Shown in pieces: positions 9,991 through 44,660 of a stretch of 46,177 nucleotides of DNA. Below the pieces are notes generated by a model. That model did no database searches. It was not told the DNA's origin and worked only from the letters and a program-made list of their open reading frames with translations. A program made the translations under genes and the position numbers. Positions within the stretch are counted from its first letter, which is position 1, and every line of letters begins with the position of its first letter. The DNA lies in IMG/VR virus record IMGVR_UViG_2627853910_000001, one strand, 5' to 3'. This DNA comes from a virus (taxonomy: Duplodnaviria > Heunggongvirae > Uroviricota > Caudoviricetes).

Positions 9991-10992
9991 TTAATACCCA
10001 TTAATTACTCTTCGGACATCAATCGAGGTGGTATAACCACTAGCCCCAATTGAATGCACAGCTTTCGATATAAGATATTTTCCAGAAAATGAACCGAATC
10101 CGTCAAGATTTATAGTTACACCAGCAACCAATCTGGTGTCTCCAACCAATACTAAAGATCCTGTATTTTGATATCTATTTTTAATCCGCAAAGCAGCCTT
10201 TGCCTTACGTTTTGCTTCATCTAAATTAGCTACCAGTTTTCTTATCTTAAGATTCGACCCTTCTTCTACGGATGGATCTACCCAAGTATACGAAAGCGAC
10301 TTTCTTTTTTTAGGTACGCGATATTTGCACGTGCAACTTTTATACAAATCTGTAGATTGTGTGCTAAAGCTATATCTGATTATCTCATCAATACCTAACG
10401 TAAGCGTAGCGATAGGATCTTTTTGCTCAAACATCTCTTGAGCAAATATTATTAATTGGCTATCAGTGACCTTTAACGACAACCCTTCATCCTGGCAAAG
10501 TCGATGGAGAAATTTTAAATCGCTTTCCTCCATTTGATCTTCACGCGCATAATATGGATTACTATCACCATCAATAAGAAACAACAGTTCAAGGTTAGCT
10601 AATTTAGCTATAGAAGTTGCTATATCTTTAAGAGTTGTTTTTTCCCATGCATTACTTTTTAAATCACGTCTAATGCCTGATGAAACAGGAACAGAAACAG
10701 CAGTTACCTCAACAACAGAAGGTGGTCCAGAGCAAGTTATGCCATCTACCTGGAATTTCCCGCACTCAAGGACGATTTGATTTATAGGCTTAAAGCTCAA
10801 ATCAATAAAATCACCCTTTTTAGGTGTCCAGTCTCCAGACCATTTCCCATCATCATTTTTTAATATAATAGAAATATCATCGACCTGACCATCTTCATTA
10901 TCTGTATAAGACATTGACAAAACATCAGGTGACATATGAGCGGTAATATTTACATTCTGATATATAACATCAAAAAGCGTTTTACGTAACAC
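9991..10992 (-). CDS. Tail protein, P2 gpD / Mu gp44-like
   Basis: 333 aa; position after tape measure and X-like gene. Confidence 0.6.
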   Translation of the reverse strand: MLRKTLFDVIYQNVNITAHMSPDVLSMSYTDNEDGQVDDISIILKNDDGKWSGDWTPKKGDFIDLSFKPINQIVLECGKFQVDGITCSGPPSVVEVTAVSVPVSSGIRRDLKSNAWEKTTLKDIATSIAKLANLELLFLIDGDSNPYYAREDQMEESDLKFLHRLCQDEGLSLKVTDSQLIIFAQEMFEQKDPIATLTLGIDEIIRYSFSTQSTDLYKSCTCKYRVPKKRKSLSYTWVDPSVEEGSNLKIRKLVANLDEAKRKAKAALRIKNRYQNTGSLVLVGDTRLVAGVTINLDGFGSFSGKYLISKAVHSIGASGYTTSIDVRRVINGY

Positions 10993-22281: not shown

Positions 22282-24138
22282 CTATATGGTTACGCCTTTA
22301 CTTATAACTCTACGGCGTCTTCTACGTATACCTGACGAGTTCTGCACATACACATTACCTCGCATTTCCTGTTCGGCAAGCCAGTTAAAATTAGGGTTCA
22401 GAATTTCCATCGCGGCAGTTGCATAGTTACGGCAATCAAGAGGCTCGTTACGCTCGTAGACTTTCACCCACTTTTCTTTTGTCTGCCCATTTTTATATTC
22501 AAATATTTTCTTCTCTGATAATAATCCTTTAAAGTATTCGGTATCATATCCTCTGTCAGAATCTAATGGGAAATGCATATAACCAGGACCAGGATCATGT
22601 AGTTTAATTCTTGCCATGATGGTCCCTTTACCATCATCAACCCCCAAATTAAACAACATAGCACCCACACGGTTATTATTACTTGGCTTTCCTATAAATG
22701 GTAAACCTACCCCACCACGCCCCCTGATAGAGTATATTCGCCTTGATTCTCTCGGCTTAGTAAAGCGATATACCTCTGTCGTAAAATGCCCACCAGAGTC
22801 AATACAAACGGAAGAAATCTGTAATTTTCGACCGTCACGGAATGACCAGCTACGGAGTAAGTATTCATCAAGTTGTTTCCAGACAACATCTTGTGCGGGA
22901 TCACCTGGGAATATTTTATATTCTATCCCCCATGACTCCTTACCTTTTCCCCAACCGACCAATTCACAAACTAAATACGTGTCCTGTACGTCAACACCAG
23001 CACTTAACAATAAAACATCATCTGGTAAAAACTCTTCAAACCTTATTCTGCGTTGCAACAAGTATTCAGGATCGATATCGTCTTTAGCATCCTCTTTCCA
23101 TGGCTCACCCAGCTTAAGGTTAATAAACTCCATTAATCCATTTTTATCGCGGTTTCTGGTTGCTTCCGTAAATTCTTCAACCAGCTCTGACAATGCAACC
23201 CACGGGGAGTAAAGACTGTTAATATGAAAACCAACAATACCTTTAACTCCAGTATGTTCAGCTATCCATACCCCCTTCGCCAACCAATCAACGTCTGGTT
23301 TACCAGATCCGCGCATAATCCCGCCGCACTCACAGCACTCATATCTGGCCGTTTCCGGTAACGCCTCACCTGAATCGCTCTTATCCCATCTGACTTGCGA
23401 CCATTTCATCACCTGCATGGTGCCACAACATGGGCAAGGAACATGGTAGTAACGCTGATCGGAGAGCTTAAACCACTTGTGGATTTTGCTCGTTTCCTCC
23501 AAAACAGGAGTAGAAACAAAAACTTTCTTACGATTATGAAAGTTGGTAGTACGCTGAATACCTAGTTTTAGTGGGTCGCCCTCCTGCGTCACACCGTAAC
23601 GATCAATCTCATCAGCTAACAGTATTCGAATTGGCCTGGATGCAAGACCTGCTGGGGAATTAGCACCAACAAGTGCTATATATCCACCAGCGTAATGCTT
23701 CATACGTATAGTCGTGCTGGACTTTTTGGCTGCACCGCGCCCCTCTTTCCCTTCATGCAGCTTGTGTTTCAAACCAGGGGAATATTTGAACGTCGGATCA
23801 ATACGCTCTTTTGAAAAAGCCTCAGCCGCCTCTACCGTTGGATAAATCATCAACTGAGGAGATGGCTCCTGATCTGCAAAGTAACCCATAACATTTAGCT
23901 GTAATTCGGATTTACCAATTTGCGAGCTACATTGCATCACTACTGTTTCTGTATCAGCGTCACCAATAACATCCATTGGTTCACGCAAATATGGCACTCG
24001 GCTTGTACGCCACGGCCCTGGCTCTGGAGACGTTCCCGGCGCTACATGACGATACTTATCAGCCCATTCGGAAACAGTTAGCCGTGATTTAGGGCGAAGC
24101 GCACGGAAAAAAGCGGTGCTCCATACTGTTTCGCCCAT
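22282..24138 (-). CDS. Terminase large subunit (lambda gpA-like)
   Basis: 618 aa; CPCCG motif region resembling gpA zinc-binding segment. Confidence 0.85.
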   Translation of the reverse strand: MGETVWSTAFFRALRPKSRLTVSEWADKYRHVAPGTSPEPGPWRTSRVPYLREPMDVIGDADTETVVMQCSSQIGKSELQLNVMGYFADQEPSPQLMIYPTVEAAEAFSKERIDPTFKYSPGLKHKLHEGKEGRGAAKKSSTTIRMKHYAGGYIALVGANSPAGLASRPIRILLADEIDRYGVTQEGDPLKLGIQRTTNFHNRKKVFVSTPVLEETSKIHKWFKLSDQRYYHVPCPCCGTMQVMKWSQVRWDKSDSGEALPETARYECCECGGIMRGSGKPDVDWLAKGVWIAEHTGVKGIVGFHINSLYSPWVALSELVEEFTEATRNRDKNGLMEFINLKLGEPWKEDAKDDIDPEYLLQRRIRFEEFLPDDVLLLSAGVDVQDTYLVCELVGWGKGKESWGIEYKIFPGDPAQDVVWKQLDEYLLRSWSFRDGRKLQISSVCIDSGGHFTTEVYRFTKPRESRRIYSIRGRGGVGLPFIGKPSNNNRVGAMLFNLGVDDGKGTIMARIKLHDPGPGYMHFPLDSDRGYDTEYFKGLLSEKKIFEYKNGQTKEKWVKVYERNEPLDCRNYATAAMEILNPNFNWLAEQEMRGNVYVQNSSGIRRRRRRVISKGVTI

Positions 24139-24143
24139 GAGGT

Positions 24144-24704
24144 TTATTCTTCCTGCTTAATAAATCGGGATTCCTGGAGCGCCTGAAGCGCAAAATTAAT
24201 CTCGTCTTCAATAATGCGTTCGATCTCCCTGGCTGTTTTGCCTTCACAACGGGGAGCAGCTCTTGGAGCAATACTAAATAAGCGGCTACGCAATTCATTA
24301 GCTGCCAGAAATGCATCATCCCTGACCGCATCTTTAGCGATGAGAGAGCCTTCCTTTTCTTCAAATTCAAGGCGTTTCAGCTTTGCCTGATAAATTTTTT
24401 CTGCGGTCTTAGCCTTGTTGAATTGCACCGCAACACCGGAAGTACCACCAGCTAATCCGGCATCATCAGCGGGTAACTCTGGTTGTTCCGAAGATATCCC
24501 ATGCCCTCTTTTTCCATTTTCAGCAGATACCTCACGACCAACCTGTCGGCTCGCTTCATAAGCCGCACTGGCTTTATCAAAATCCAGCTTGCCGCTTTTC
24601 AGCACTGGAATGCGACCGGAACGACAGAGCTTCGTAACCATTGCCGGAGAAATACCTTTCCGGCGGGCAAACTCTGACTTACTGACGATGGCCATTACTT
24701 GCAA
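24144..24704 (-). CDS. Terminase small subunit (Nu1-like, N-terminal HTH)
   Basis: 186 aa immediately upstream of terL; SKSEFARRKGISPAMVTKL HTH. Confidence 0.55.
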   Translation of the reverse strand: MQVMAIVSKSEFARRKGISPAMVTKLCRSGRIPVLKSGKLDFDKASAAYEASRQVGREVSAENGKRGHGISSEQPELPADDAGLAGGTSGVAVQFNKAKTAEKIYQAKLKRLEFEEKEGSLIAKDAVRDDAFLAANELRSRLFSIAPRAAPRCEGKTAREIERIIEDEINFALQALQESRFIKQEE

Positions 24705-25285
24705 CCATTAGCAAGATACTGAACAAATCCCTCATGCGTTTCATGCGCGTCGTGGTACTGACGATAAACATCCAGCAACAATGCAATTTCCATATCCGTC
24801 GCGGGAATACGTTCTTTATCAATAGCCAGGTACTTAATTTGAACAACAGGGGAAGAATTATCGTCTTCTTCCTGCGGCTGTTCATCGCTTAACATTTCGT
24901 CAAGCTCTGCATCATTAAACCCAAGCAGATCAATATCAAAATCATCATCCATTAACTCTTTGACTTCTTCGGCCAGAAGCTGCATATCCCAGCCAGCATT
25001 TAAGGCCAGCTTGTTATCTGCAATCCTGTACGCCTTCTTCTGTTTTTCAGAAAGGTTACTCAACCGAATCGCCGGAACTTTATCCATTTCCAGAATTTCG
25101 GCTGCTGCAAGCCGCCCATGCCCCGCAATCAGTTCATTCTTTTCATCGATCAGCACAGGATTAGTGAAACCGAACTCACGGATACTGTTCACCAACTGTT
25201 CAACTTGCTCATCTGAATGAGTCCGTGAATTTTTGGCATATCTGAGCAGCTTACCGACTGGTAAATATTCGATTTTTAGAGCCAT
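24695..25285 (-). CDS. ParB/Srx-fold (ParB-like nuclease domain) protein, copy 1
   Basis: GHGR motif in ParB N-terminal-like domain; overlaps terS start by 10 nt; paralogue of 27952-28575. Confidence 0.6.
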   Translation of the reverse strand: MALKIEYLPVGKLLRYAKNSRTHSDEQVEQLVNSIREFGFTNPVLIDEKNELIAGHGRLAAAEILEMDKVPAIRLSNLSEKQKKAYRIADNKLALNAGWDMQLLAEEVKELMDDDFDIDLLGFNDAELDEMLSDEQPQEEDDNSSPVVQIKYLAIDKERIPATDMEIALLLDVYRQYHDAHETHEGFVQYLANGCK

Positions 25286-26578: not shown

Positions 26579-27958
26579 CTACTTAATCAACGGCCGGAAA
26601 GCCGCCAGCACATCATCAGATCGTCCGATTGTTGAACCACCAGGCAACGGCAACTCAAACTCAAAACGAACAGCTTTCTCCAGACTCGCCCAACTAAGGG
26701 AATCATCGTTAATGACGTGCAAATACCAGCTCTTACAGTTGAATATTGACCGCTTAATCCTGAAACCATGTACACGACACAACTGCTTCACTTCATCATC
26801 AGAGTGAAACTTCTGGTAAAACCAGTGCCCCTTCCGGTACAACGCGGTAAAACCGTTATGATCAATAAAATAAAGCCGGCTTTTGGAACTCGCCGCTTGT
26901 GTTTGCTTCAGGACTGTTTCCAGCTCTCCACGGCTACGACCAGAAAAGAATATTGACCCACCAGCTTTACACAGGCCTTTTAGAACCGTCAGAACGGACC
27001 ATTCAGCCTCGACACTATCGACCGAGTTCAAAACGCTATCGCAAATCACGTAGTCGTAACGCCCTCGCGTTTTTAAGTCGTCCACCAGCGTATCAATCAT
27101 CCGGTTTGTTGCGGCCCTATCCAAAGTGTTTCCAGCGCCCTTACGGCGGAAAAGCTCGAGATCATGCAGGTTATATCCCTTTGCCCTGAGCATTCGCGCG
27201 TAGTCTCCCTGCCCCGAGCCAAAATCAATTCCTCTTGGCGTCTTGGCAATGATCGGGAGGATCAACGACTCATACAGGTTTGATTTCAGGCTGCCACCAT
27301 TACGCAACCGCATAAGCTGCGCATACGTCTGGATGTATGTTGTTTTCTCCAGATGAGAATACTCAAATACACCATAAGTTTTATTCAGATAACTTTGGTA
27401 TTTTTCCTTCTCAACATCAGGGATCACAAACACCGTTAGCGGTGTGCGCGTCATCTTCGCTGCTAATGCATACTGAGCACAGTGAATAACCTCACCAGAC
27501 TGAGTCGCAACACAACCACCCCACGGACCATACTTGATAACCAGTTCCGCTATGTTCTTTCGAACATATGCCATTTTCGCGCGCATATTGCCTGAGATCT
27601 GGCTTGCCGATACCTGAACAAAACCATGCTTATCTTCCAGACCTGACACCCTGCAACGCTCATCTCCGCTATCAAAATCCGTTCCGTTATGCAGTTGGTT
27701 AAACCGTACTTCGTCGTATACCGTCGTTTCACAGGGCAACACATACACCGCAGCACTCGTTATTCCCAATTTACGTAGCGCCTTCGTCCTTTGGTGTCCC
27801 GCCACCAGCAAATCGCCGCGCACTATCAATGGCTTCACAAGCCCCAGCTCCCTGACGCTTTCCGCCAGCCTCGCAAGATCATCCTCACCGATAAAACGCG
27901 GGTTATATTCCGCGCCGCGTAGGTGCGTTATGTCGTAATTGAGGTGAAGCATCAGCAC
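26579..27958 (-). CDS. ParB-N-like domain fused to class I SAM-dependent methyltransferase
   Basis: N-terminal VAGHQR ParB-like motif; C-terminal IDFGSGQG and YDYVICDSVL motifs typical of SAM methyltransferases. Confidence 0.6.
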   Translation of the reverse strand: MLMLHLNYDITHLRGAEYNPRFIGEDDLARLAESVRELGLVKPLIVRGDLLVAGHQRTKALRKLGITSAAVYVLPCETTVYDEVRFNQLHNGTDFDSGDERCRVSGLEDKHGFVQVSASQISGNMRAKMAYVRKNIAELVIKYGPWGGCVATQSGEVIHCAQYALAAKMTRTPLTVFVIPDVEKEKYQSYLNKTYGVFEYSHLEKTTYIQTYAQLMRLRNGGSLKSNLYESLILPIIAKTPRGIDFGSGQGDYARMLRAKGYNLHDLELFRRKGAGNTLDRAATNRMIDTLVDDLKTRGRYDYVICDSVLNSVDSVEAEWSVLTVLKGLCKAGGSIFFSGRSRGELETVLKQTQAASSKSRLYFIDHNGFTALYRKGHWFYQKFHSDDEVKQLCRVHGFRIKRSIFNCKSWYLHVINDDSLSWASLEKAVRFEFELPLPGGSTIGRSDDVLAAFRPLIK

Positions 27959-28575
27959 ACCTCCCCAGCCAGCAATGCGGATACAAATCCGATATAGCTG
28001 CCATTATCATCAACATAACGAGACACCGCGCAGTCAAAACGATCCGCTTCCTCATCCGTTGCTGGGATTTTATGACCTCCAAATGACAGGTACTGAACTT
28101 TTACGCCTGATTTGGCCTCATCCTTCTCAAATGGGATATCCATACCCTCTGTGTCATCGTAGACTGCCGCACTCAATAAGTTATCCAGTTCGCGCTGAGT
28201 AAAACCAATTGAGTCCAGAGCAAAATCATCGGCCGCAAGATCTGCAAGCTCCGCGCTTAACAGCTCTTCATCCCAACCAGCATTCAGCGGAATACGGTTG
28301 TCGGCCAGACGATATGCCTTCTTCTGATTCTCCGTTAGCCCTTCCAGAACAATGCAGGGAACATCATCCATCCCCAACTGAGTGGCCGCAGCAATTCGAC
28401 CATGACCAGCAATTACAACGTTGTTCTCGTCTATCAGGATCGGATTAGTCCATCCGTACTCCTGTATGCTGGCAACAATCTGATCTACCTGCTCCACGGA
28501 GTGTGTGCGAGCGTTCTTTTCATAACCAATCAACACAGAAAGTGGTAAAGAAACCACATTAAGATGTTTTGTCAT
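27952..28575 (-). CDS. ParB/Srx-fold (ParB-like nuclease domain) protein, copy 2
   Basis: Paralogue of 24695-25285 (IAGHGR, NQKKAYRLADN, LNAGWD); overlaps downstream gene start. Confidence 0.6.
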   Translation of the reverse strand: MTKHLNVVSLPLSVLIGYEKNARTHSVEQVDQIVASIQEYGWTNPILIDENNVVIAGHGRIAAATQLGMDDVPCIVLEGLTENQKKAYRLADNRIPLNAGWDEELLSAELADLAADDFALDSIGFTQRELDNLLSAAVYDDTEGMDIPFEKDEAKSGVKVQYLSFGGHKIPATDEEADRFDCAVSRYVDDNGSYIGFVSALLAGEVC

Positions 28576-30452: not shown

Positions 30453-30718
30453 TCATCATCTCCTGCCGCACATACAACCTCACAAAAAACATCAGCGGAA
30501 TGTTTCTCCTTGAACGAATGACGCTCAAAACCGCACTCAATATCAGGCGCAAAAACATCCACCACATACGGTCTTTCAGAATGTTCGTTTTCCCAACGAT
30601 AAACCGTAGTGACGTTGAAATGTTTTAACGCTTCACGGAACTCAACGCTGCCCGTCAGGTTTTTTGAGGTCAGGTATTGCAGGAGGTTTTTTACTACTTC
30701 ACGGTCTTGTACTTTCAT
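30449..30718 (-). CDS. Hypothetical protein, first gene after repeated promoter cassette copy A
   Basis: ATG immediately follows the repeat, which supplies GGAGA RBS. Confidence 0.45.
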   Translation of the reverse strand: MKVQDREVVKNLLQYLTSKNLTGSVEFREALKHFNVTTVYRWENEHSERPYVVDVFAPDIECGFERHSFKEKHSADVFCEVVCAAGDDE

Positions 30719-30835
30719 CGGGTTATCTCCGGTTTAACCAGGGCGGGTATCGCTCGGTTTCGGGTATAACCTTAGGAAATTTTTTCCCACCTGTAAAGCA
30801 CTTTTTATATAAATCTATAATTATATAATTCTATG
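30719..30835 (-). repeat. Repeated promoter/leader cassette, copy A (~117 bp)
   Basis: Near-identical (1 mismatch) to 44539-44655 and ~95% to 35440-35547; ends at the start codon of the downstream gene. Confidence 0.85.
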
Positions 30836-31418
30836 CCACTTGCCAGAGAGCATCATGCAACTGGATACCTCCATTGCACTGGTTGCCCCAGCCATGCCAG
30901 CCATCAGGTAAATCACCGCGAGCAAACAGCTCAATACGAGGAACATCACCTAACAGCTTTACCAGCTTGTCACGGACCACATCAGGCTTCCGAGAATGCT
31001 CCAGACGAGGCGATGTAAACGACTGAATGATCCCCGCATCAAGACGGGTCGGCAGTTTGCCTTTTACCGCAAACAAGCAATCTTCACTGTTTGCACGAGT
31101 CATATGCCCCATCCCCATCACCAGCTTATCTGGTTGTCGGCTACCACATTTGTTCCATGTGAAGCCCTTCATGGTCATCAGCCTGAATCCCCATGCTTTA
31201 ACCACCAGCAACGCTTCTTCTGGCTGAGTCGGAACCCACCACATGGCCAACAAACACGATTCAGGATTAGCAAGCTGCCAGACAGGAATACGAGCAATCT
31301 CCTCAGCTTTCATCGTTGGATACTTAAAACCAGCTCCACGATTCCCATCCTTACACTTGTCTTTGTATTCCCAGGGGGGATCTGCATAAATCAGATTAAA
31401 CAATGCAATTGCCTCCAT
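30831..31418 (-). CDS. MT-A70-family DNA N6-adenine methyltransferase
   Basis: DPPW catalytic motif (YADPPWEY) near N-terminus. Confidence 0.8.
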   Translation of the reverse strand: MEAIALFNLIYADPPWEYKDKCKDGNRGAGFKYPTMKAEEIARIPVWQLANPESCLLAMWWVPTQPEEALLVVKAWGFRLMTMKGFTWNKCGSRQPDKLVMGMGHMTRANSEDCLFAVKGKLPTRLDAGIIQSFTSPRLEHSRKPDVVRDKLVKLLGDVPRIELFARGDLPDGWHGWGNQCNGGIQLHDALWQVA

Positions 31419-31725: not shown

Positions 31726-31801
31726 TGGTGGCCCCTACCGGATTTGAACCGATGACCGTGCGATTATGAGTCGCCTGCTCTAACCACTGAGCTAAGGGGC
31801 C
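31726..31801 (-). tRNA. tRNA with CAU anticodon (Ile2/lysidine-type or Met)
   Basis: 76-nt cloverleaf GGCCCCTTAGCTCAGTGGTTAGAGCAGGCGACTCATAATCGCACGGTCATCGGTTCAAATCCGGTAGGGGCCACCA; acceptor and D-arm identical to E. coli ileX-type tRNA as recalled; encoded CCA. Confidence 0.85.
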
Positions 31802-31894: not shown

Positions 31895-31970
31895 TGGTTG
31901 ATGCGTGCGCCCATGAGAAAAGCGCATAGAATGTTGTAACTATATATTTATATAATTATAGAAATATATA

Positions 31971-32180
31971 TTACTTTGGACAGTTGATTTCCCATGCCCT
32001 GTTATGAGCCAGAATATCTTTCTTTGTCTGTCGGTCCATAACATCGATGTCGTGATCAGTCAGGTAGATGGGCTTTACCCAATCACAGGCGGTATCAACC
32101 ACCACCGGGACGCTTCCACGACTCCCGCAGCTCGCGATCAACATCGTCATCAGCCATATGGTTAACACTCTGCTGTACAT
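31971..32180 (-). CDS. o-spanin (Rz1-like lipoprotein), overlapping 3-prime end of i-spanin
   Basis: Signal peptide with lipobox LIASC; overlaps the i-spanin gene. Confidence 0.55.
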   Translation of the reverse strand: MYSRVLTIWLMTMLIASCGSRGSVPVVVDTACDWVKPIYLTDHDIDVMDRQTKKDILAHNRAWEINCPK

Positions 32181-33625: not shown

Positions 33626-34012
33626 ATAAAGCAACAAATTACGCGGTAATCGCTTAACGCAGTTTTACTACGTTAAATGAAACACTACACCCAGTTACCA
33701 CCTAAAACAAGGTTTTCCCATAAAAAAACCTTCATATTGTGGTTAATCGATCAATAAAAAAACAATACTTAACTTTTGACCAACCGAACATCCCGACCAG
33801 GACTTCCATAATATTCGCCGATATGCCACTGCTTAAGTTGAGTAATCTTCTCCAACTTAACGCCCATAGAGTCCAGTTTCTGCCATGTTTTCGGTTGTAT
33901 GTGCTTCATTATGTTTCTTTCGGACCAACACACCAGGTTGTCGGCGTTTCGCGCAACTTCACTCTTTTCTCACCATCATTGGTAATGATTATTCCGGTAT
34001 GGGTTTTGATGC

Positions 34013-34315
34013 TCATGCCACAGCCCCTCTCAACGGCTTAACTTTGGCTAATAAGGTGTTAAACAACATGGAGTTAGGATTCATGCCAAATGGCAATTCC
34101 GGTTTAGCGGAGTAGTACAGGCAACCATTTATTTTCCTGGTTGTTATCTGTCCTTCGGCAACCATGCTTCTCAGTCTGCAACGCATAGAGTTCTGCGACA
34201 CACCAATGTGCTCCGCGATTACGTCCACTTTTGAACATGGGTGATCGGTCAGGAAATTAATCACATCTTGGGGGTTAATAATTTTGCGTTTCATTGTCGA
34301 GGCGTCCTTATACAT
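34013..34315 (-). CDS. Small winged-helix/HTH DNA-binding protein (candidate regulator)
   Basis: 100 aa; HTH-like segment SKVDVIAEHIGVSQNSMRCRLRSMVAEGQI. Confidence 0.4.
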   Translation of the reverse strand: MYKDASTMKRKIINPQDVINFLTDHPCSKVDVIAEHIGVSQNSMRCRLRSMVAEGQITTRKINGCLYYSAKPELPFGMNPNSMLFNTLLAKVKPLRGAVA

Positions 34316-34371
34316 TTATATAAATATATAATTCTATATACGGCGGGAGATATCCCGCCGTAGGCTTACTG

Positions 34372-35439
34372 TCAGGCTTTCAATAGCGATTCTTTCAGAT
34401 ATCGGGCATCAGCCAGGGCGTTTGGAGTAATCTTGCGAACCCATGCATTACGGGTTGGACTCCACTTAAAGGCGCGTGATTTAAGCAGCGAACGAATGTT
34501 TGCCTCTGGTTTGCCAGGGAAATAAAACAGGATGCGGTTATCCTCTGGATCTATCTCCATAGAAAAGCCGTCGTATTCTTCGCGCTGTGCTCCTGTTACA
34601 GACTTGACCGATTCAAGCTCCTTAATACGGCTCTGTAGTCGTTTGATTTCGGCCTTATTGTTGCTCAGTGCGTATGAAGGGAATCCGATGTGCCCACAGA
34701 AATCTCCGGCCAGTAACTCTTTGGCTTCGCTTTCTGTAAACCTGAGATCGATTAATGCAGAAAGCTGCTGTAATTGGTCTTTTTTGTATTTGCGAATGGC
34801 CTTATTTGCGGCCTTCATTTTGACGTGTGACTTCATGCAGCCTTGCAGCTTACGAAGCAACTTAAATAGCGCATCAGGATCATCAGACGAAATTCCATTA
34901 CGACCAACACCTGCGGCTTTGCTCTCGTAGTGTGATGCTTTACTTTCGCATTCAACAAACGCTTTTCTGAATAACGCATCAGCTTTAGACAAACGGCGGC
35001 GATGGCCTTTCGCGCTATAATGGTCAACTAAAATCGGCTGGCCTAACGGGATCACATCCAACAGGTCATGCGCTCGCTTATGCGCTACCGCACCTTCTTT
35101 TCTGGCTTTTTCTGCACGAGCAATATATCGGGCAAGACGCGCGTTCTGGCGTTCCTGATAGGTGTTTACGTAATCATCTCCGCGCTGCTGCTGTTCAAGC
35201 CATGCTTTGCGCAGATCTTCTGTTACGTCCACCAGCTCCGCAGGGATACAACCAGTTTGGGCTTCATAAGAGTAACCATCCTCATAGATACGCCCATCGT
35301 CTTCAACAAAGAAAAAGGTTTCGTGCTCATCGCTTTTGACCATACGACCATTAACATGGCGTAATAGGTAGCCAGTATCAGTGCTTAACAGGCTGTTAGG
35401 GTTGTTGATCCAGTCAGAAATAATTACTTGTTTATTCAT
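34372..35439 (-). CDS. Conserved hypothetical protein (possibly DUF3560-type; recalled, unverified)
   Basis: 355-aa ORF starting right after repeat copy B; basic helical central region. Confidence 0.45.
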   Translation of the reverse strand: MNKQVIISDWINNPNSLLSTDTGYLLRHVNGRMVKSDEHETFFFVEDDGRIYEDGYSYEAQTGCIPAELVDVTEDLRKAWLEQQQRGDDYVNTYQERQNARLARYIARAEKARKEGAVAHKRAHDLLDVIPLGQPILVDHYSAKGHRRRLSKADALFRKAFVECESKASHYESKAAGVGRNGISSDDPDALFKLLRKLQGCMKSHVKMKAANKAIRKYKKDQLQQLSALIDLRFTESEAKELLAGDFCGHIGFPSYALSNNKAEIKRLQSRIKELESVKSVTGAQREEYDGFSMEIDPEDNRILFYFPGKPEANIRSLLKSRAFKWSPTRNAWVRKITPNALADARYLKESLLKA

Positions 35440-35547
35440 CAGATTTCTCCGGTTTAACCAGGGCGGGTATCGCTCGGTTTCGGGTATAACCTTAGGAAAT
35501 TTTTTCCCACCTGTAAAGCACTTTTTATATAAATCTATAATTATATA
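35440..35547 (-). repeat. Repeated promoter/leader cassette, copy B
   Basis: ~108 bp shared with copies A and C; lies between Q-like gene and next gene. Confidence 0.85.
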
Positions 35548-35608
35548 TTTATAGATTTTCGATGTTCCCGATGTCTACACACCATCAAAACAGCTCAAAA
35601 TGACACTT

Positions 35609-37959: not shown

Positions 37960-37978
37960 TTAACGAACTCCAGTTAAA

Positions 37979-38014
37979 ACCACGATATGTGGTATTAAAA
38001 CCACATATCGTGAG
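37979..38014. promoter_or_regulatory. Two adjacent 15-bp operators (ACCACGATATGTGGT and inverted copy)
   Basis: Same 15-mer in opposite orientations between divergent Cro-like and CI-like genes. Confidence 0.55.
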
Positions 38015-38081
38015 TTTTTCAATGGGCGAAACAAAAAATAACCTTCTATTTGTGGTCCACCTCTCGTCTTACCATGTGAAA

Positions 38082-38096
38082 ACCACTAAATGTGGT
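38082..38096. promoter_or_regulatory. Third operator ACCACTAAATGTGGT adjacent to TATAAAT -10 upstream of CI-like gene
   Basis: Same ACCAC-N5-GTGGT architecture; TATAAAT at 38101-38107. Confidence 0.45.
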
Positions 38097-38133
38097 AATG
38101 TATAAATAACCCACCATTCACGATTGATGAGAC

Positions 38134-38790: not shown

Positions 38791-38832
38791 TACACAGCAC
38801 GGCGAAAGCCGTGCATTTCTACGCTCAAAAAA

Positions 38833-38847
38833 ACCACATTATGTGGT
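38833..38847. promoter_or_regulatory. Perfect operator palindrome ACCACATTATGTGGT overlapping TTGACA upstream of 38883 gene
   Basis: Palindrome ends inside the TTGACA hexamer at 38849-38854. Confidence 0.45.
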
Positions 38848-38882
38848 TTTGACAACATGTAAAAGTATAAAAGAGGCTACGC

Positions 38883-39257: not shown

Positions 39258-39283
39258 CTGCAAGCGGGCTAACGCCCGCTTAT

Positions 39284-39392
39284 ATGATTATAGATTTATA
39301 TAATTATATAAAACGCTTTCCATCCGCCAAAAAGTTGGTTATGCTTACCTCGTTCTATAAATATAGATTTATAGAATTATATAACCAAACAC
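39284..39392 (+). promoter_or_regulatory. AT-rich iterons upstream of parA (candidate centromere/operator)
   Basis: ATTATAGATTTATATA at 39287-39302 and variant at 39362-39377. Confidence 0.45.
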
Positions 39393-39407
39393 ATGGAGTC
39401 TCGACAA

Positions 39408-40061
39408 ATGACTATCTCTGTAGGTATTTTCAACGGAAAAGGCGGCGTAACCAAATCAACAATTGCCCGTGCTTTAGCAGTTGCTTATGCAAAGGCTGGC
39501 TGGAATGTATGCCTGATCGATATGGATGTGCTTAACGGAACGGTAACGCGTTGGGTACAACGCAGAATGGCCAACAATATCGAACCAGCAATCGCGGCGC
39601 AGCCGTGCGGCACACCATCACAAGTCCAGAAAATCATCGAATCAGAAGTATACGACCTGGTTATCGTTGATGGCGGTGCCTACGCATCTGAATCAGTACC
39701 GAAGCTATCTGAATTTCTGGATATGGTTATTTTGCCAACCCGATTCTCTACCGATGACCTGGAAACCACCGTTAACACTGCTCACGGCATCGTTAAAAAG
39801 GGTGTGCCAATCAAGAAAATTTGCATGGTGTTTTCCGGCGCGGCTGAAAATGAAGCTGACTATATTGAAGCCCAAGAGTACCTGGCTAATACGCCATACT
39901 TTGTTGTCGATAAGTACATTCCCCACAAGCCAGCTCTGAGCAAAGCTCAGGATAAGGGCTTAAGCCTCATTGAATGCTCATACGTTGCGCCACGCAAAAA
40001 GGCAGACGACGTTATTCAGGGGATTATCAACCAGCTTGAGGCTCTGACTACTGCCGCGTAA
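39408..40061 (+). CDS. parA: ParA-family partition ATPase
   Basis: Deviant Walker A GKGGVTKST; start set at ATG with GGAG RBS (track ORF begins 39393). Confidence 0.8.
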   Translation: MTISVGIFNGKGGVTKSTIARALAVAYAKAGWNVCLIDMDVLNGTVTRWVQRRMANNIEPAIAAQPCGTPSQVQKIIESEVYDLVIVDGGAYASESVPKLSEFLDMVILPTRFSTDDLETTVNTAHGIVKKGVPIKKICMVFSGAAENEADYIEAQEYLANTPYFVVDKYIPHKPALSKAQDKGLSLIECSYVAPRKKADDVIQGIINQLEALTTAA

Positions 40062-40104
40062 TATATAATTATAGTTTTATAGATTTATATAAGAGGGGAT
40101 ACAC

Positions 40105-40353
40105 ATGGCCGCACCATCAAAACCACCAAAGAAGAACAGCAAAGGCGTACCGCCATCGATCGAACAACCGCAGGTTTTCGACCCGACTGAAACGCCAACC
40201 AGAACCAAATCAGGTGGGGCACAAATGGCGTTTAACGTCGACCCTGAATTTAAACGCGAGTACAAAACGTTCGCCAGTTCAATGGATATGTCATTGAAAG
40301 AAGTGCTGACAAAATCTTTTGAGTTACTCAAGGCTCAATACAACCAGAAGTAA
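40105..40353 (+). CDS. Small partition partner, ParG/RHH-like centromere-binding protein candidate
   Basis: 82 aa directly after parA; disordered basic N-terminus then helical C-terminus; iteron TATAGATTTATATA immediately upstream. Confidence 0.5.
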   Translation: MAAPSKPPKKNSKGVPPSIEQPQVFDPTETPTRTKSGGAQMAFNVDPEFKREYKTFASSMDMSLKEVLTKSFELLKAQYNQK

Positions 40354-40565: not shown

Positions 40566-40750
40566 ATGTAGCCATAAAAAAGGCGGGCAACCAACCCGCC
40601 TCATTAGAGGTCAACGTCTCTTAGAAACCATCAAATTCGTCATACCGCTTTTTCATATCAACCCCGTATTGAAATCGTAACCACATCTTGTGGCTCTTAC
40701 GGTATATAAGCTACTGCAATGGTAAACAGCTATCAAATGCAGGTTGCAGT

Positions 40751-40772
40751 AAAAAAGGCCCCCGAAGGGGCC
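40751..40772 (-). terminator. Terminator GGCCCC-GAA-GGGGCC with T-run on minus strand
   Basis: GC stem; A6 on plus strand upstream gives T6 after hairpin on minus. Confidence 0.5.
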
Positions 40773-40778
40773 TAATCG

Positions 40779-40901
40779 CTACTTGCTGCTAATGTTTATC
40801 GTCACATTCAGAGCGTTATCAGTAATCTTCCAACCCTCCCCATGTGGCGTAAACAAAGCTCCAGTAACAACGATAAAAATACACATACAGTATTTTTTCA
40901 T
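40779..40901 (-). CDS. Small hydrophobic peptide (40 aa), candidate type I toxin or small membrane protein
   Basis: MKKYCMCIFIVVTGALFTPHGEGWKITDNALNVTINISSK; terminator 7 nt downstream. Confidence 0.35.
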   Translation of the reverse strand: MKKYCMCIFIVVTGALFTPHGEGWKITDNALNVTINISSK

Positions 40902-40966
40902 TGTGTGGCCCTTACAGGCCGTTTCACGGCATCTCCACCGACGAAAATGACGCGAGAGCAAGCACT

Positions 40967-40983
40967 CCGCTTGTGCTTGCGTG
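40967..40983. repeat. 17-nt direct repeat CCGCTTGTGCTTGCGTG (copy 1, in putative 5-prime UTR of small ORF)
   Basis: Identical 17-mer at 41216-41232; copy 1 sits in an 8-bp hairpin. Confidence 0.7.
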
Positions 40984-41149
40984 TACGGCAAGTGGATGAT
41001 CCTTTCCTTAAAGTCGGTGCCCGGGTGCGAATCGGCGAAAAGGCCCCAAGCCATATTACACGTCCTCGCCTTCATAATGAAGGAATAACAATTGCTTTTA
41101 TTACATGTAATTACATCCGAAGAAGTTAAAAAACTTCATTCTGCATGAA

Positions 41150-41316: not shown

Positions 41317-41334
41317 TTTCTGCCTACCAATAAA

Positions 41335-41349
41335 CCCACGCTATGTGGT
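41335..41349. promoter_or_regulatory. CI-operator-like site CCCACGCTATGTGGT upstream of antirepressor operon
   Basis: 14/15 match to operator at 37979-37993. Confidence 0.4.
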
Positions 41350-41552
41350 TGTCTCTGTTAAAATCCCGCCGTATTGACATGAATGCGCCATTGGTGGACA
41401 CTTTCCGAGCCGTAGCAAAATCTACGGCCGGGATTGGCGTCCCGATAATCATCATGGCGCATACCGCGTTAGCGGTTTTTTTATGCGTAAAGCACGGCTA
41501 CACCCGAATTATGGTGGGGCGTGCGGGGGAGCCGTAAGGCTCGCCGGGTATC

Positions 41553-41840
41553 ATGATGACCGGTTACGCCAACCCTGTACGTCTCACCACCTCACTGATT
41601 GGCGTCAGCGGTGGTGATTATTCCAATATCAAAACTGGAACTATCATCATGACAAACTTACCCCATGACTATTACGTCAACCTCGTAAAGATCCTTCTCA
41701 AGAAAGCCTCATACGCCGATAAATTCCGCCTGGCTGAAATCATCGAGCGCGAAGCTATGCGCATCGCCAGCAACGATAACGCTGTTTCTGACGCAAAAAT
41801 CTCCCTCGTAACCAAAGTAGTTATGGGAGGTGCAAAATGA
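41553..41840 (+). CDS. Hypothetical protein translationally coupled to antirepressor (icd-like position)
   Basis: Stop overlaps antirepressor ATG (ATGA). Confidence 0.4.
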   Translation: MMTGYANPVRLTTSLIGVSGGDYSNIKTGTIIMTNLPHDYYVNLVKILLKKASYADKFRLAEIIEREAMRIASNDNAVSDAKISLVTKVVMGGAK

Positions 41841-43012
41841 AAACGCTTCCGACCGTTAACACCCTACAACCTATCCTGCATAACCAGCTCCCCGTTATCA
41901 CTACTGAACTACTGGCAAAGCTATACGGCACAGACGTTGATAACATCAAAAAAAATTACTCACGTAACGCAAACCGCTTTATTGAAGGAAAGCATTTTTT
42001 CAAAGTGGCTGGCGATGAGTTAAAAACTTTGCGAGTGACTTTAAGTCACTCACAAAATTTGCGGGTAGCTTTAAACTACTCACAAAATACCATCTCCCCA
42101 AAAACCCGCACCCTCATCCTCTGGACAGAACGCGGGGCTGCACGTCACGCCAAAATGCTCGAAACCGATCAGGCGTGGGATGTATTCGAACGGCTGGAAG
42201 ACTGCTATTTCAACCAGAACGCGAAAACGGCAGCGACCGTAACCGTCTCGCCAAACAATGCTCGTGAGGTCGTCGATACGCTCAACGCCAAACCGATGTT
42301 TTACATTAAGGTGTGCAATAACGAGCCACTCACAACCTCAGCCGATGTTGCCCAGGCATTCAGCACCACAAACAATTCCATCGTTATGGCCATCGATGCG
42401 TTACGCATTCCTCGCACAGCTGCGGCACGTCATTTCTTTAAAGAGCAACGACCGCTGGAAGGAAGCGACCGCGAAATAACAATCTATCGCATGACAAAAG
42501 ACGGATTTACCTTGCTCATGGAAAGTATCGACGGTCCAGGCGTGAAGGATATCAAGCTGGCCTACATTGAAGCCTTTAACGCTATCAGCAGCGTGTTAAA
42601 AACACAGTACGAGCGCGATCTGGCTAAACGACTGTACCAGGAAAAAACGATTATCCGCGCGGCAACAGAGCATAATCGGCTATTAACGGAACCGAACTAC
42701 AGGAAGGAACTAATCAAGGAGTTTGACAAGGCAACAGGGAAAACCAAAGCGGCGCTAAATCTGCCAGCAATGACTCAGGAAAATGTGATATCAGCCTTAC
42801 TTCTTGATCTACTCAGAAACGCCAGAGCACTTATCAGCTTTGACGAAAACCTGAATCCTCAACTCAAGCTACTACCACCGACAGGCAAAGTAGTCGACCA
42901 GGCTGATCACAACAGCATACTCAGCGTACTGGATGCAAACCTGCCAACCAGGACACTACAGGATCTGATAAAAACATGTGCTGATAAGCTGGCACAGAAA
43001 AGCAGACCATAA
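41837..43012 (+). CDS. Antirepressor (ORF6N/Rha-like domains)
   Basis: N-terminal ITTELLAKLYGTDVDNIKKNYSRNANRF and central PMFYIKVCNNEPLTTSADVAQAF segments typical of phage antirepressors. Confidence 0.7.
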   Translation: MKTLPTVNTLQPILHNQLPVITTELLAKLYGTDVDNIKKNYSRNANRFIEGKHFFKVAGDELKTLRVTLSHSQNLRVALNYSQNTISPKTRTLILWTERGAARHAKMLETDQAWDVFERLEDCYFNQNAKTAATVTVSPNNAREVVDTLNAKPMFYIKVCNNEPLTTSADVAQAFSTTNNSIVMAIDALRIPRTAAARHFFKEQRPLEGSDREITIYRMTKDGFTLLMESIDGPGVKDIKLAYIEAFNAISSVLKTQYERDLAKRLYQEKTIIRAATEHNRLLTEPNYRKELIKEFDKATGKTKAALNLPAMTQENVISALLLDLLRNARALISFDENLNPQLKLLPPTGKVVDQADHNSILSVLDANLPTRTLQDLIKTCADKLAQKSRP

Positions 43013-44157: not shown

Positions 44158-44538
44158 TTACTTAACGAGAAATAAAAATGGTTTATTGTTCGGAGGTGTA
44201 ATCGGGGCTGGCTCGCTTTTGCTCATGCGATCAGTGTACCAGGCCAGCTCCTTGTCAAAGTAAGCCTGATTAAAATAGGCCATGAATGTAGTTTCAAATC
44301 CATAACGACCGCTAATACGCAGCATCTGATTGCCGTTCTCTGTTTCCAGATATACCTGGGCACGTTCCTGATTCTCCTTCAGCCAGGTTAAAGCCTCGTC
44401 GCACGAGGACACACGATACTCATCATCGTAGCCGTCATCGATGCGGCTTGAAGAAGAACGGCAAATCACGCCAACAGAACCAGCCAGGATAGTTTGAATT
44501 TTAAGGAAAGCGTTTTTGCGGATTTTAATCATGCTCAT
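44158..44538 (-). CDS. Hypothetical protein, first gene after repeated promoter cassette copy C
   Basis: 126-aa ORF; ATG immediately follows the repeat. Confidence 0.45.
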   Translation of the reverse strand: MSMIKIRKNAFLKIQTILAGSVGVICRSSSSRIDDGYDDEYRVSSCDEALTWLKENQERAQVYLETENGNQMLRISGRYGFETTFMAYFNQAYFDKELAWYTDRMSKSEPAPITPPNNKPFLFLVK

Positions 44539-44655
44539 CGGGTTATCTCCGGTTTAACCAGGGCGGGTATCGCTCGGTTTCGGGTATAACCCTAGGAAAT
44601 TTTTTCCCACCTGTAAAGCACTTTTTATATAAATCTATAATTATATAATTCTATG
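44539..44655 (-). repeat. Repeated promoter/leader cassette, copy C
   Basis: 116/117 identical to copy A. Confidence 0.85.
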
Positions 44656-44660
44656 AGCAC

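Follow-up and report, generated by a model that had tools for sequence, protein, structure and literature searches.

The stretch of viral DNA analysed here (IMG/VR record IMGVR_UViG_2627853910_000001, 46,177 nucleotides (nt), referred to as the window) is a phage-plasmid of ~46 kilobases (kb) that combines a P2-like tail and a lambda-like head with RepA, a CI-like repressor, HigBA, an invertase and a type Ib partition (par) operon, the latter encoding a small ParA and a protein of 82 amino acids (aa). The window contains eight arrays of a short tandem repeat, three at the par operon and five at other places, and the reading that best accounts for them is that the 82-aa protein is probably a type Ib centromere-binding protein which, in the manner of the omega protein, recognizes dispersed arrays that would serve as operators and centromeres alike. 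Segregation would most likely be tied in this way to several other promoters, much as omega does in streptococcal plasmids.

Eight arrays of four 8-bp units

A preliminary description of this DNA had singled out a 16-mer, ATTATAGATTTATATA, upstream of the par operon and at the edge of three similar promoter cassettes. The sequence is present in exact form at 39287-39302 on the plus strand and at 30806-30821, 35526-35541 and 44626-44641 on the minus strand, in each case in the orientation claimed relative to the downstream gene, and the variants reported along with it are genuine (39360-39383 and 40068-40091, with looser ones at 34307-34340 and 31939-31972). The four exact matches stand against 0.00 expected in 100 dinucleotide shuffles, and the 26 matches with up to three mismatches against 0.75 expected, while the matches with no more than two mismatches are confined to eight loci. 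The three cassette copies are not independent of one another, because they are duplicates within a 121-base-pair (bp) segment that occurs three times at 90-99% identity and holds three of the four exact copies. Close inspection of the sites, cut in register, reveals that the true repeating unit is not the 16-mer but an 8-bp sequence with the consensus TTATAKAW. One form of this unit, TTATATAA, is a palindrome, and the orientation is marked by the G found in other units. All eight loci carry four tandem units (32 bp each) and are located within the non-structural third of the window, from 30.8 to 44.7 kb:

30805-30836, minus strand: array of cassette 1, running from 30836 to 30805, units GCATAGAA TTATATAA TTATAGAT TTATATAA
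31940-31971, plus strand: orphan array between the end of the lysis cassette and tRNA-Met, with two decayed units at 31924-31939
34308-34339, minus strand: array before a MarR-like gene, units ATATAGAA TTATATAT TTATATAA ATGTATAA
35525-35556, minus strand: array of cassette 2, running from 35556 to 35525
39280-39311, plus strand: array par1, units TTATATGA TTATAGAT TTATATAA TTATATAA
39353-39384, plus strand: array par2, units TTCTATAA ATATAGAT TTATAGAA TTATATAA
40061-40092, plus strand: array par3, units ATATATAA TTATAGTT TTATAGAT TTATATAA
44625-44656, minus strand: array of cassette 3, running from 44656 to 44625

The same eight loci, and nothing else in the 46 kb, were returned by a detector that uses no motif and scores only self-periodicity at 8 bp (at least 17 of 24 matches). 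When the window was scored with a matrix derived solely from the 12 par-proximal units, the eight arrays reached 36.4-42.4 bits, and the segment ranking ninth 14.0 bits. Every array consists of exactly four phased units, no intermediate sizes are found elsewhere in the window, and what remains outside the arrays are isolated single units, sites of two or three units there being no more frequent than in shuffles. The arrays contain TATAAT-like hexamers and, at 88-94% A+T, exceed all other 32-mers of the window in AT-richness. In random DNA that reproduces their dinucleotide statistics, the exact 16-mer should turn up 0.005 times per 256 nt, whereas four copies are observed; the frequency is not that of AT-rich intergenic DNA, the outcome that the preliminary description had named as fatal to its motif, and chance and AT-richness are excluded as the source of the repeats.

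The arrays are also conserved. Five complete genomes (the window, a Yersinia phage, two E. coli plasmids, one of them from ATCC 25922, and a Salmonella plasmid) contain eight array loci each, at orthologous places, and the orphan array is kept at its position in all five. Where relatives (designated by L numbers) differ in array length, they do so by whole units, giving 24, 32 or 40 bp (3, 4 or 5 units), as at the following sites:

L002 (CP055628.1), 22302-22325: compared with 44625-44656 in the window
L003: 30365-30388, 34064-34087 and 43880-43919

In the Salmonella relative, whose par DNA is 79.5% identical to that of the window, the spacer containing the candidate par promoter (Ppar) is heavily substituted and both flanking arrays keep the unit consensus. 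As for the wider distribution of the element, the 4 kb containing par are 95-98% identical to ~46-50-kb non-mobilizable plasmids of E. coli, E. fergusonii, E. albertii and Klebsiella, the par region is ~80% identical to Salmonella plasmids, and identity to the Yersinia phages vB_YpM_39/41/44 is 97% (the 'pseudolysogenic' Yersinia phage HQ103 was set aside as an unrelated 32-kb phage). The par module was found in 71 of 5,426 complete E. coli genomes, ATCC 25922 among them; of its 72 matched places, 71 are on plasmid records. Such phage-plasmids are common, and the running of their plasmid state has hardly been studied.

The 82-aa protein and its proposed match to the arrays

The par operon comprises, besides its three arrays, the following elements:

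39317-39345, plus strand: candidate Ppar, TTTCCA (39317-39322), 17 nt, TATGCT (39340-39345), between par1 and par2
39408-40061, plus strand: parA, a small Walker-type ATPase of 217 aa (an alternative start at 39393 is possible)
40105-40353, plus strand: gene of the 82-aa ParG-like protein, starting 43 nt after parA; the proposed binder of all arrays

The first array, par1, follows immediately on the hairpin that terminates the upstream gene, and 5 nt separate its end from the candidate -35 hexamer of Ppar; par2 begins at about the predicted transcription start and ends just before the ribosome-binding region of parA (GGAGTCTCGACAAATG); and par3 is placed behind the stop codon of parA and ahead of the site where ribosomes would bind for the 82-aa gene. 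An array-promoter-array layout recurs in L003-L007 and L013. The ATPase matches CbiA (1.5e-12, residues 7-186), MipZ and ParA in Pfam as well as phrog_164 (ParA-like) in PHROG, and its solved relatives include ParF (4dzz) and the ParA of TP228 (5u1g); it has no helix-turn-helix or N-terminal DNA-binding domain. The operon shows sequence features of type Ib systems, namely a ParA of ~200-230 aa lacking a DNA-binding domain, a partner of fewer than 100 aa directly downstream, and repeats at the promoter. The pairing of parA with the small gene was found in nine relatives' loci, and the small gene follows a small ParA in every relative locus that reaches upstream.

Searched directly, the sequence of the 82-aa protein gave no matches among solved structures or in Pfam and NCBIfam, including none to Pfam ParG (PF09274) at E ≤ 0.01, and a word-indexed protein search returned only close relatives, of 79% identity or more, whose strand and iterons are unchanged, so that it could not inform on co-variation. 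An exhaustive profile search gathered about 100 clusters at 50% identity, mostly of 60-100 aa, which define an uncharacterised ParG-like family for which there is no curated model. In the family alignment, a Pro/Lys-rich tail (MA..PSKPpKK..KG.PP) is followed by the pattern LNFKVdpEFkreFK..AA..DMSM..LL..FE.yK. The window's protein accordingly has a disordered Pro/Lys-rich tail with the conserved PxKK..KG.PP, a predicted ß-strand (Q40-M-A-F-N-V-D46) and predicted helices at 47-59 and 64-80; AlphaFold2 likewise returned residues 1-39 as disordered, residues 40-46 as extended and two confident helices, and fold searches with this monomer gave no matches.

The family is related in sequence to ribbon-helix-helix proteins. 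Among 80 aligned relatives, 21 match RHH_10 in Pfam, nine Antitox_RHH, three 56B_RHH, three HicB and two ParG, the ParG matches being weak (best E 2.7e-4); omega is not among the ten Pfam families matched by these 80 relatives, and the 82-aa protein itself matches none. When the family profile was compared with solved structures, the best matches were the ribbon-helix-helix protein 2kel and ParG (1p94), which are weak (E about 0.1) and in register, while hhalign against the fold domain of ParG gave a probability of 77% and an E-value of 2e-5. On these sequence comparisons, the 82-aa protein is ParG-like in its predicted architecture without being a member of the Pfam ParG family. Since M41, F43 and V45 point to the core in the ParG alignment, Q40, A42 and N44 are predicted to face the DNA.

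Relatives with a ~30-45% identical protein all have, where their loci reach upstream, 8-bp-phased arrays around Ppar, and across these relatives the sequence of the unit tracks the strand triad at positions 40, 42 and 44:

Q-A/S-N: TATAGA / TATATA (the window, L001-3 and L012)
P/A-N-N: TAAAGA (L004, L005 and L007)
P-N-K: TAACGA (L008 and L013)
D-N-K: TAGCGA (L014)
L-T-N: TACATA (L006)
S-F-W: TCATGMAT (L009)

A matrix derived from an element's own par units finds the arrays of that element, which a foreign matrix fails to do. With the par-derived matrices of L004 and L013, additional dispersed arrays are detected in L004, L007 and L013, so that dispersal is a recurrent trait of the phage-borne members.

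Two further comparisons bear on the arrays. In L007 the cassette promoter, AAAAATGCTTTACAGGTAGGAAAGAATTTCCTAG, is nearly identical to that of the window, but the four units upstream of it have the L007 core (TATTTA, TAAAGA, TCTTTA) and not TATATA or TATAGA. Judged from these sequences, the array evolves as a module matched to the resident par system. The promoter having been kept while the units were swapped, the 16-mer is ruled out as the promoter core that the preliminary description had offered as one of its two explanations. The second comparison is between L008, a conjugative plasmid, and L013, a phage-like element, which have the same unit and even an identical 24-mer although the stretches compared (20 kb and 12 kb) have only ParA and the small protein in common. 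Because the small ParA has no site-specific DNA-binding domain and L008 and L013 share only these two proteins, we infer that the small protein is the reader of the unit. Its binding to all sites, those of the cassettes included, was the other explanation put forward in the preliminary description, and it emerges as the best-supported one by virtue of the ribbon-helix-helix likeness, the 8-bp phasing, the co-variation and the L008/L013 pair. As regards the regulon of 'accessory and late cassettes' that was attached to it, nothing supports the label 'late', and transcriptional control, as distinct from centromere function, is a proposed role.

Proposed circuit, promoters and competing explanations

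We propose that the eight 32-bp arrays would be binding platforms for the 82-aa protein, one dimer reading the core TATA(G/T)A of each 8-bp unit with the strand residues Q40, A42 and N44, and four adjacent dimers coating each array cooperatively. At par, where two arrays bracket the promoter and the third precedes the protein's own gene, occupancy would provide autoregulation and the primary centromere. The same protein would sit on the arrays abutting the -35 hexamers of the three duplicated cassette promoters, tuning three further transcription units, as well as on the array before the MarR-like gene and on the orphan array, so that its concentration would co-regulate all of these units. The regulation would most likely be repression, by analogy with omega of pSM19035. 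With its four units, each array would in addition have the length required of a further centromere-like site engaging ParA; the minimum of four repeats for ParA engagement in omega-parS would provide a rationale for the invariant four-unit size and make each array a potential centromere. By analogy with ParG, the conserved basic motif in the tail is likely the ParA-contacting element (PMC3130281). Binding, stoichiometry, the direction of regulation and centromere activity are all read here from sequence and from the behaviour of known systems.

Several such systems bear a resemblance to the one proposed. The met-boxes of MetJ are tandem near-palindromic 8-bp boxes (2-5 copies), each bound by one ribbon-helix-helix dimer with cooperation between neighbours, and their geometry is that of four tandem TTATATAA-like units; MetJ differs in that it is a metabolic repressor of the chromosome, depends on a co-repressor and plays no part in partition. 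The ParG sites of TP228 are also said to form an 8-bp repeat. KorB of the IncP plasmids is partition-linked and has dispersed sites, but it is a large helix-turn-helix ParB that acts on 13-bp palindromes, not on tandem 8-bp units, and is not encoded by a phage-plasmid. It is because of the geometry of the met-boxes, the ParG boxes (PMC3130281) and the omega heptads (PMC4627068) that one dimer per unit is proposed.

Functionally, the closest counterpart is omega/delta/parS of the inc18 plasmid pSM19035 (Streptococcus pyogenes). Omega occupies stretches of 6-10 contiguous heptads (7-bp repeats), about one dimer to each heptad; these stretches lie in three promoter regions, which serve as the parS sites too. 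Omega can also activate at low occupancy (PMC4627068), while the ParA of pSM19035 requires at least four contiguous repeats for activation (PMC9499535). Both systems pair a small, tailed protein of ribbon-helix-helix type (here predicted) with a small ParA, and both have contiguous short repeats without spacers, direct or inverted. The omega sites act as centromere and operator in several promoter regions; here, too, the same arrays recur in separate regions, eight in all, at par and at five other places. The window's system departs from omega in its unit (8 instead of 7 bp), in having four units per array instead of 6-10 and eight loci instead of three, and in its enterobacterial host and phage-plasmid replicon. 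Whereas omega controls copS, no array is found here at the replication gene (repA lies at ~0.6-1.6 kb). Sequence membership was not detected either, with neither the 82-aa protein nor any of the 80 relatives matching the omega family in Pfam.

Architecturally, the closest counterpart is ParG/ParF/parH of TP228 (E. coli; parH-OF). Both proteins (the 82-aa protein by prediction) have a flexible tail, which in ParG contains a ParF-activating motif, and a domain of ribbon-helix-helix type, both genes directly follow that of a ~210-aa ParA, the family profile aligns in register with the ParG fold domain, and ParF is among the nearest solved relatives of the window's ParA. Upstream of parFG, ParG covers arrays in which tetramer boxes are separated by AT-rich spacers (PMC3130281), and its sites resemble those described here in being short boxes in an AT-rich context, cooperatively coated and tolerant of box inversions (PMC3130281). 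Lying upstream of the operon, they give autoregulation as well as centromere function (PMC3130281). The two differ in the box, ACTC in ParG and TATAGA here, and in arrangement, the ~20 ParG boxes forming one contiguous region upstream of parFG with none described elsewhere on TP228 (PMC3130281). A further plasmid-encoded protein with sites spread over its plasmid and coordinating several operons is ArtA of pSK41, a ribbon-helix-helix master regulator which regulates conjugation genes and is not encoded by a phage-plasmid (PMC2777438). A ribbon-helix-helix centromere binder with operator arrays in several promoters is a known logic and not a new principle, and a specialist in plasmid partition would not be surprised by it; for phage-plasmids such a circuit is unreported. 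If all eight arrays are indeed read by the small protein, segregation would be coupled to the expression of several accessory operons, and the omega circuit of Gram-positive inc18 plasmids would have an equivalent in enterobacteria. The co-variation of operators and residues is clean enough for simple swap tests, and may be useful for predicting incompatibility and for designing orthogonal repressor-operator pairs.

The cassettes and the MarR-like gene are organized as follows:

30715-30836, minus strand: cassette 1, array at its upstream end
30797-30792 and 30774-30769, minus strand: cassette 1 promoter, -35 TTTACA and -10 TAAGGT, then a 50-nt leader
ATG at 30718, minus strand: first gene of cassette 1, 89 aa, phrog_6143
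35435-35556, minus strand: cassette 2, -35 at 35517-35512, -10 at 35494-35489, leader as in cassette 1
ATG at 35439, minus strand: first gene of cassette 2, 355 aa, DUF3560/primase-like
44535-44656, minus strand: cassette 3, preceded by a terminator hairpin at 44687-44665
44617-44612 and 44594-44589, minus strand: cassette 3 promoter, -35 and -10 (TAGGGT), leader as in cassette 1
ATG at 44538, minus strand: first gene of cassette 3, 126 aa, followed by an XRE-type helix-turn-helix gene
34013-34315, minus strand: MarR-like winged-helix gene, 100 aa

Two classes of arrays can be distinguished. Those of the first (par1 and the three cassettes) end 5-7 nt before a -35-like hexamer and belong to four different transcription units. 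The second class (par2, par3 and 34308) abuts ribosome-binding sites and leaves no room for a promoter; the 34308 array, which has no separate promoter, fits tightly between the hairpin terminating the DUF3560 gene and the ribosome-binding region of the MarR-like gene (GGACGCCTCGACAATG). The candidate promoter of the cassettes is TTTACA-N17-TAAGGT or TAGGGT, followed by the conserved 50-nt leader; its -10 varies (TAAGGT, TAGGGT, TATGGT, TAGTAT) and always keeps T-A-x-x-x-T. Promoters were assigned because a hexamer pair holds the same place between arrays 1 and 2 in L003 (TTCCAA-N17-TATCAT), L004 (TTTACC-N17-TAAGAT), L005 (TTTACA-N17-TAAGCT) and L007 (TTTACA-N17-TATTCT). The candidate hexamers lie downstream of the arrays, which argues once more that the 16-mer is not a shared promoter core, as does the position of three arrays at ribosome-binding sites and of one as an orphan: the arrays neither supply -35 and -10 hexamers nor always sit at -40 to -60 of a promoter, as expected of a sigma-70 core or UP element.

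A number of points weigh against the proposed circuit. Four of the eight arrays (31940, 34308, 40061 and arguably 39353) have no recognisable adjoining promoter, and for these a transcriptional regulon is therefore not established. The cassette and par promoters went unflagged in a consensus promoter scan with a cut-off of 9 of 12 positions (they score a weak 7 and 8 of 12); promoter-like sites were fewer in that scan than in shuffles. Being AT-rich and containing TATAAT-like hexamers, the arrays may influence promoters without any specific protein. The co-variation amounts to about six specificity classes and is partly confounded by the overall divergence of the elements, and the literature contains nothing on vB_YpM_39/41/44 or this plasmid group.

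The main live rival grants that the small partition protein binds the arrays but holds that they are centromeres only, with their closeness to promoters incidental or tolerated and no regulon beyond autoregulation of par. The four arrays without a recognisable promoter downstream fit this view, as does the conservation of array number (eight) and placement whichever gene follows, and four contiguous repeats are the minimum for ParA activation in pSM19035 (PMC9499535). We nevertheless consider it unlikely, since in the other four arrays the distance from the array end to a -35-like hexamer is fixed at 5-7 nt, an arrangement kept in L004, L005 and L007 despite the changed unit, and since both ParG and omega repress promoters that contain their sites (PMC3130281, PMC4627068). 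The opposite extension, in which the 82-aa protein would be a master regulator of the plasmid state, is a tentative possibility to which we lean less than to the omega-like reading itself. Occupancy of the eight arrays would then couple assembly of the partition complex and the protein's own concentration (hence copy number, through titration by the arrays) to the three duplicated accessory promoters and to the winged-helix gene by the lysis genes, forming a second dispersed layer beside the CI-like operators, and the family would possess a readable code relating residues 40/42/44 to positions of the TA-NNN-A core. Were this true, the recognition code would let specificity be predicted and re-engineered.

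A different phage-plasmid protein might instead bind the arrays, with par as just one target among others. It could be the 124-aa product of the gene directly preceding parA, a gene that is syntenic in L004, L005 and L007, or the MarR-like 100-aa protein, whose gene is immediately preceded by an array, or the XRE protein of cassette 3; within the phage-plasmid lineage, moreover, all proteins diverge together with the arrays. This is improbable in view of L008 and L013, which have one unit and one 24-mer in common although ParA and the small protein are all that their compared stretches otherwise share, and in view of the conjugative-plasmid relatives that lack these phage genes and still have 8-bp arrays around Ppar. 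The unit also tracks the strand residues of the small protein, and tandem sites spaced by 8 bp are typical of ribbon-helix-helix proteins (MetJ, ParG, omega), not of helix-turn-helix dimers. No other ribbon-helix-helix protein was found among 20 accessory-region proteins.

We give still less credence to the idea that no dedicated protein is involved, and that the arrays are AT-rich UP-like or bendable elements, or H-NS, IHF or Fis sites, that boost or silence neighbouring promoters. In favour of this idea, no other 32-mers of the window are as rich in A+T, four arrays occupy positions of about -37 to -68 relative to candidate promoters, the junction ATAAAAAGTG resembles a proximal UP subsite, and TATAAT-like hexamers occur in the arrays (antisense matches at 39303 and 39376). 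A protein-binding site accounts better for the strict register of 8 bp, for a size that is four units or nothing, and for the whole-unit indels. In addition, an element-specific unit switches coherently at all sites while the adjacent promoter is unchanged, which neither a host factor nor generic AT-richness would require, and some relatives have GC-containing units (TTCGTTA, TTCGCTA, TCATGMAT). With each element having its own unit type, host nucleoid proteins and generic AT-richness were rejected. Finally, it is scarcely credible that the arrays are a by-product of duplication without present function, the 121-bp cassette having been copied three times and the par copy being a fourth, older one: three of the four exact 16-mers do lie in the 90-99% identical segment, Ppar aligns loosely with the cassette promoter and the 31940 array resembles a decayed cassette, but five arrays lie outside the cassette with differing flanks, arrays are kept where flanks diverge, and the joint change of unit type in all arrays of an element requires selection on the repeat.

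Neighbouring genes and other elements of the window

RepA iterons were rejected as an explanation of the arrays, there being no array near repA and 8-bp units being too short for Rep iterons. The CI-like repressor was likewise rejected as their binder, having its own distinct and dispersed palindrome. This second motif, the 17-bp AACCACnnnnnGTGGTT, has 20 strand-matches in the window against 1.4 expected, with copies at the following positions:

37978-37994, 37999-38015 and 38081-38097
38832-38848
40679-40695
41334-41350
33728-33744
28552-28568
1652-1668

Three copies fall where the CI-like repressor gene and the leftward early operon diverge, another beside repA and a further one upstream of the C4/isrK RNAs; from these positions, the sites are probably operators of the CI-like repressor and form a separate regulon.

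The orphan array at 31940 resembles a degenerate, oppositely oriented copy of a cassette array plus -35 region; the tRNA-Met next to it (31726-31801, minus strand) lies between this array and an MT-A70 methyltransferase gene. The leaders of the three cassettes (~50 nt; 30715-30768, 35435-35488 and 44535-44588, minus strand) are predicted to form a hairpin that pairs the Shine-Dalgarno region (-16.5 kcal/mol, z = -3.07). The leader is partly conserved in the Salmonella L003 and in L007, and may act in the translational control of all three first genes, which are unrelated to one another. Near-identical translation-initiation regions are also found at parA (39385-39410, GGAGTCTCGACAAATG) and at the MarR-like gene (34292-34307, minus strand, GGACGCCTCGACAATG), each right after an array, and the parA motif precedes parA in L005 and L007 as well; this similarity suggests that an array plus ribosome-binding-site module was duplicated.

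Beside the terminase genes, the plasmid counterparts of 24695-25285, 26579-27958 and 27952-28575 (minus strand) are annotated as ParB/Srx N-terminal-domain proteins and, in one case, as a methyltransferase-domain protein; the ParB/Srx-annotated genes are unrelated to the partition system described here and do not encode its ParB. Rfam models identify, at 41396-41594 (plus strand) and 40751-41048 (minus strand), a P1-type immunity-I set upstream of Ash-like and ORF6N antirepressor genes, consisting of c4-a1b1 targets, isrK and the C4 antisense RNA (81 bits), and also a ryfA-family RNA (135 bits). A tandem pair of 30-bp repeats, each with the inverted repeat AAACTTTGCGAGTGACTTTAAGTCACTCAC, lies inside the ORF6N/antirepressor gene at 42024-42083 (plus strand). 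In L004, an SOS-box-like CTG-N10-CAG (TACTGGATAAATAAACAGTA, 10355-10390) is located downstream of the par operon, between a dispersed array and a weakly peptidase S24-like gene.

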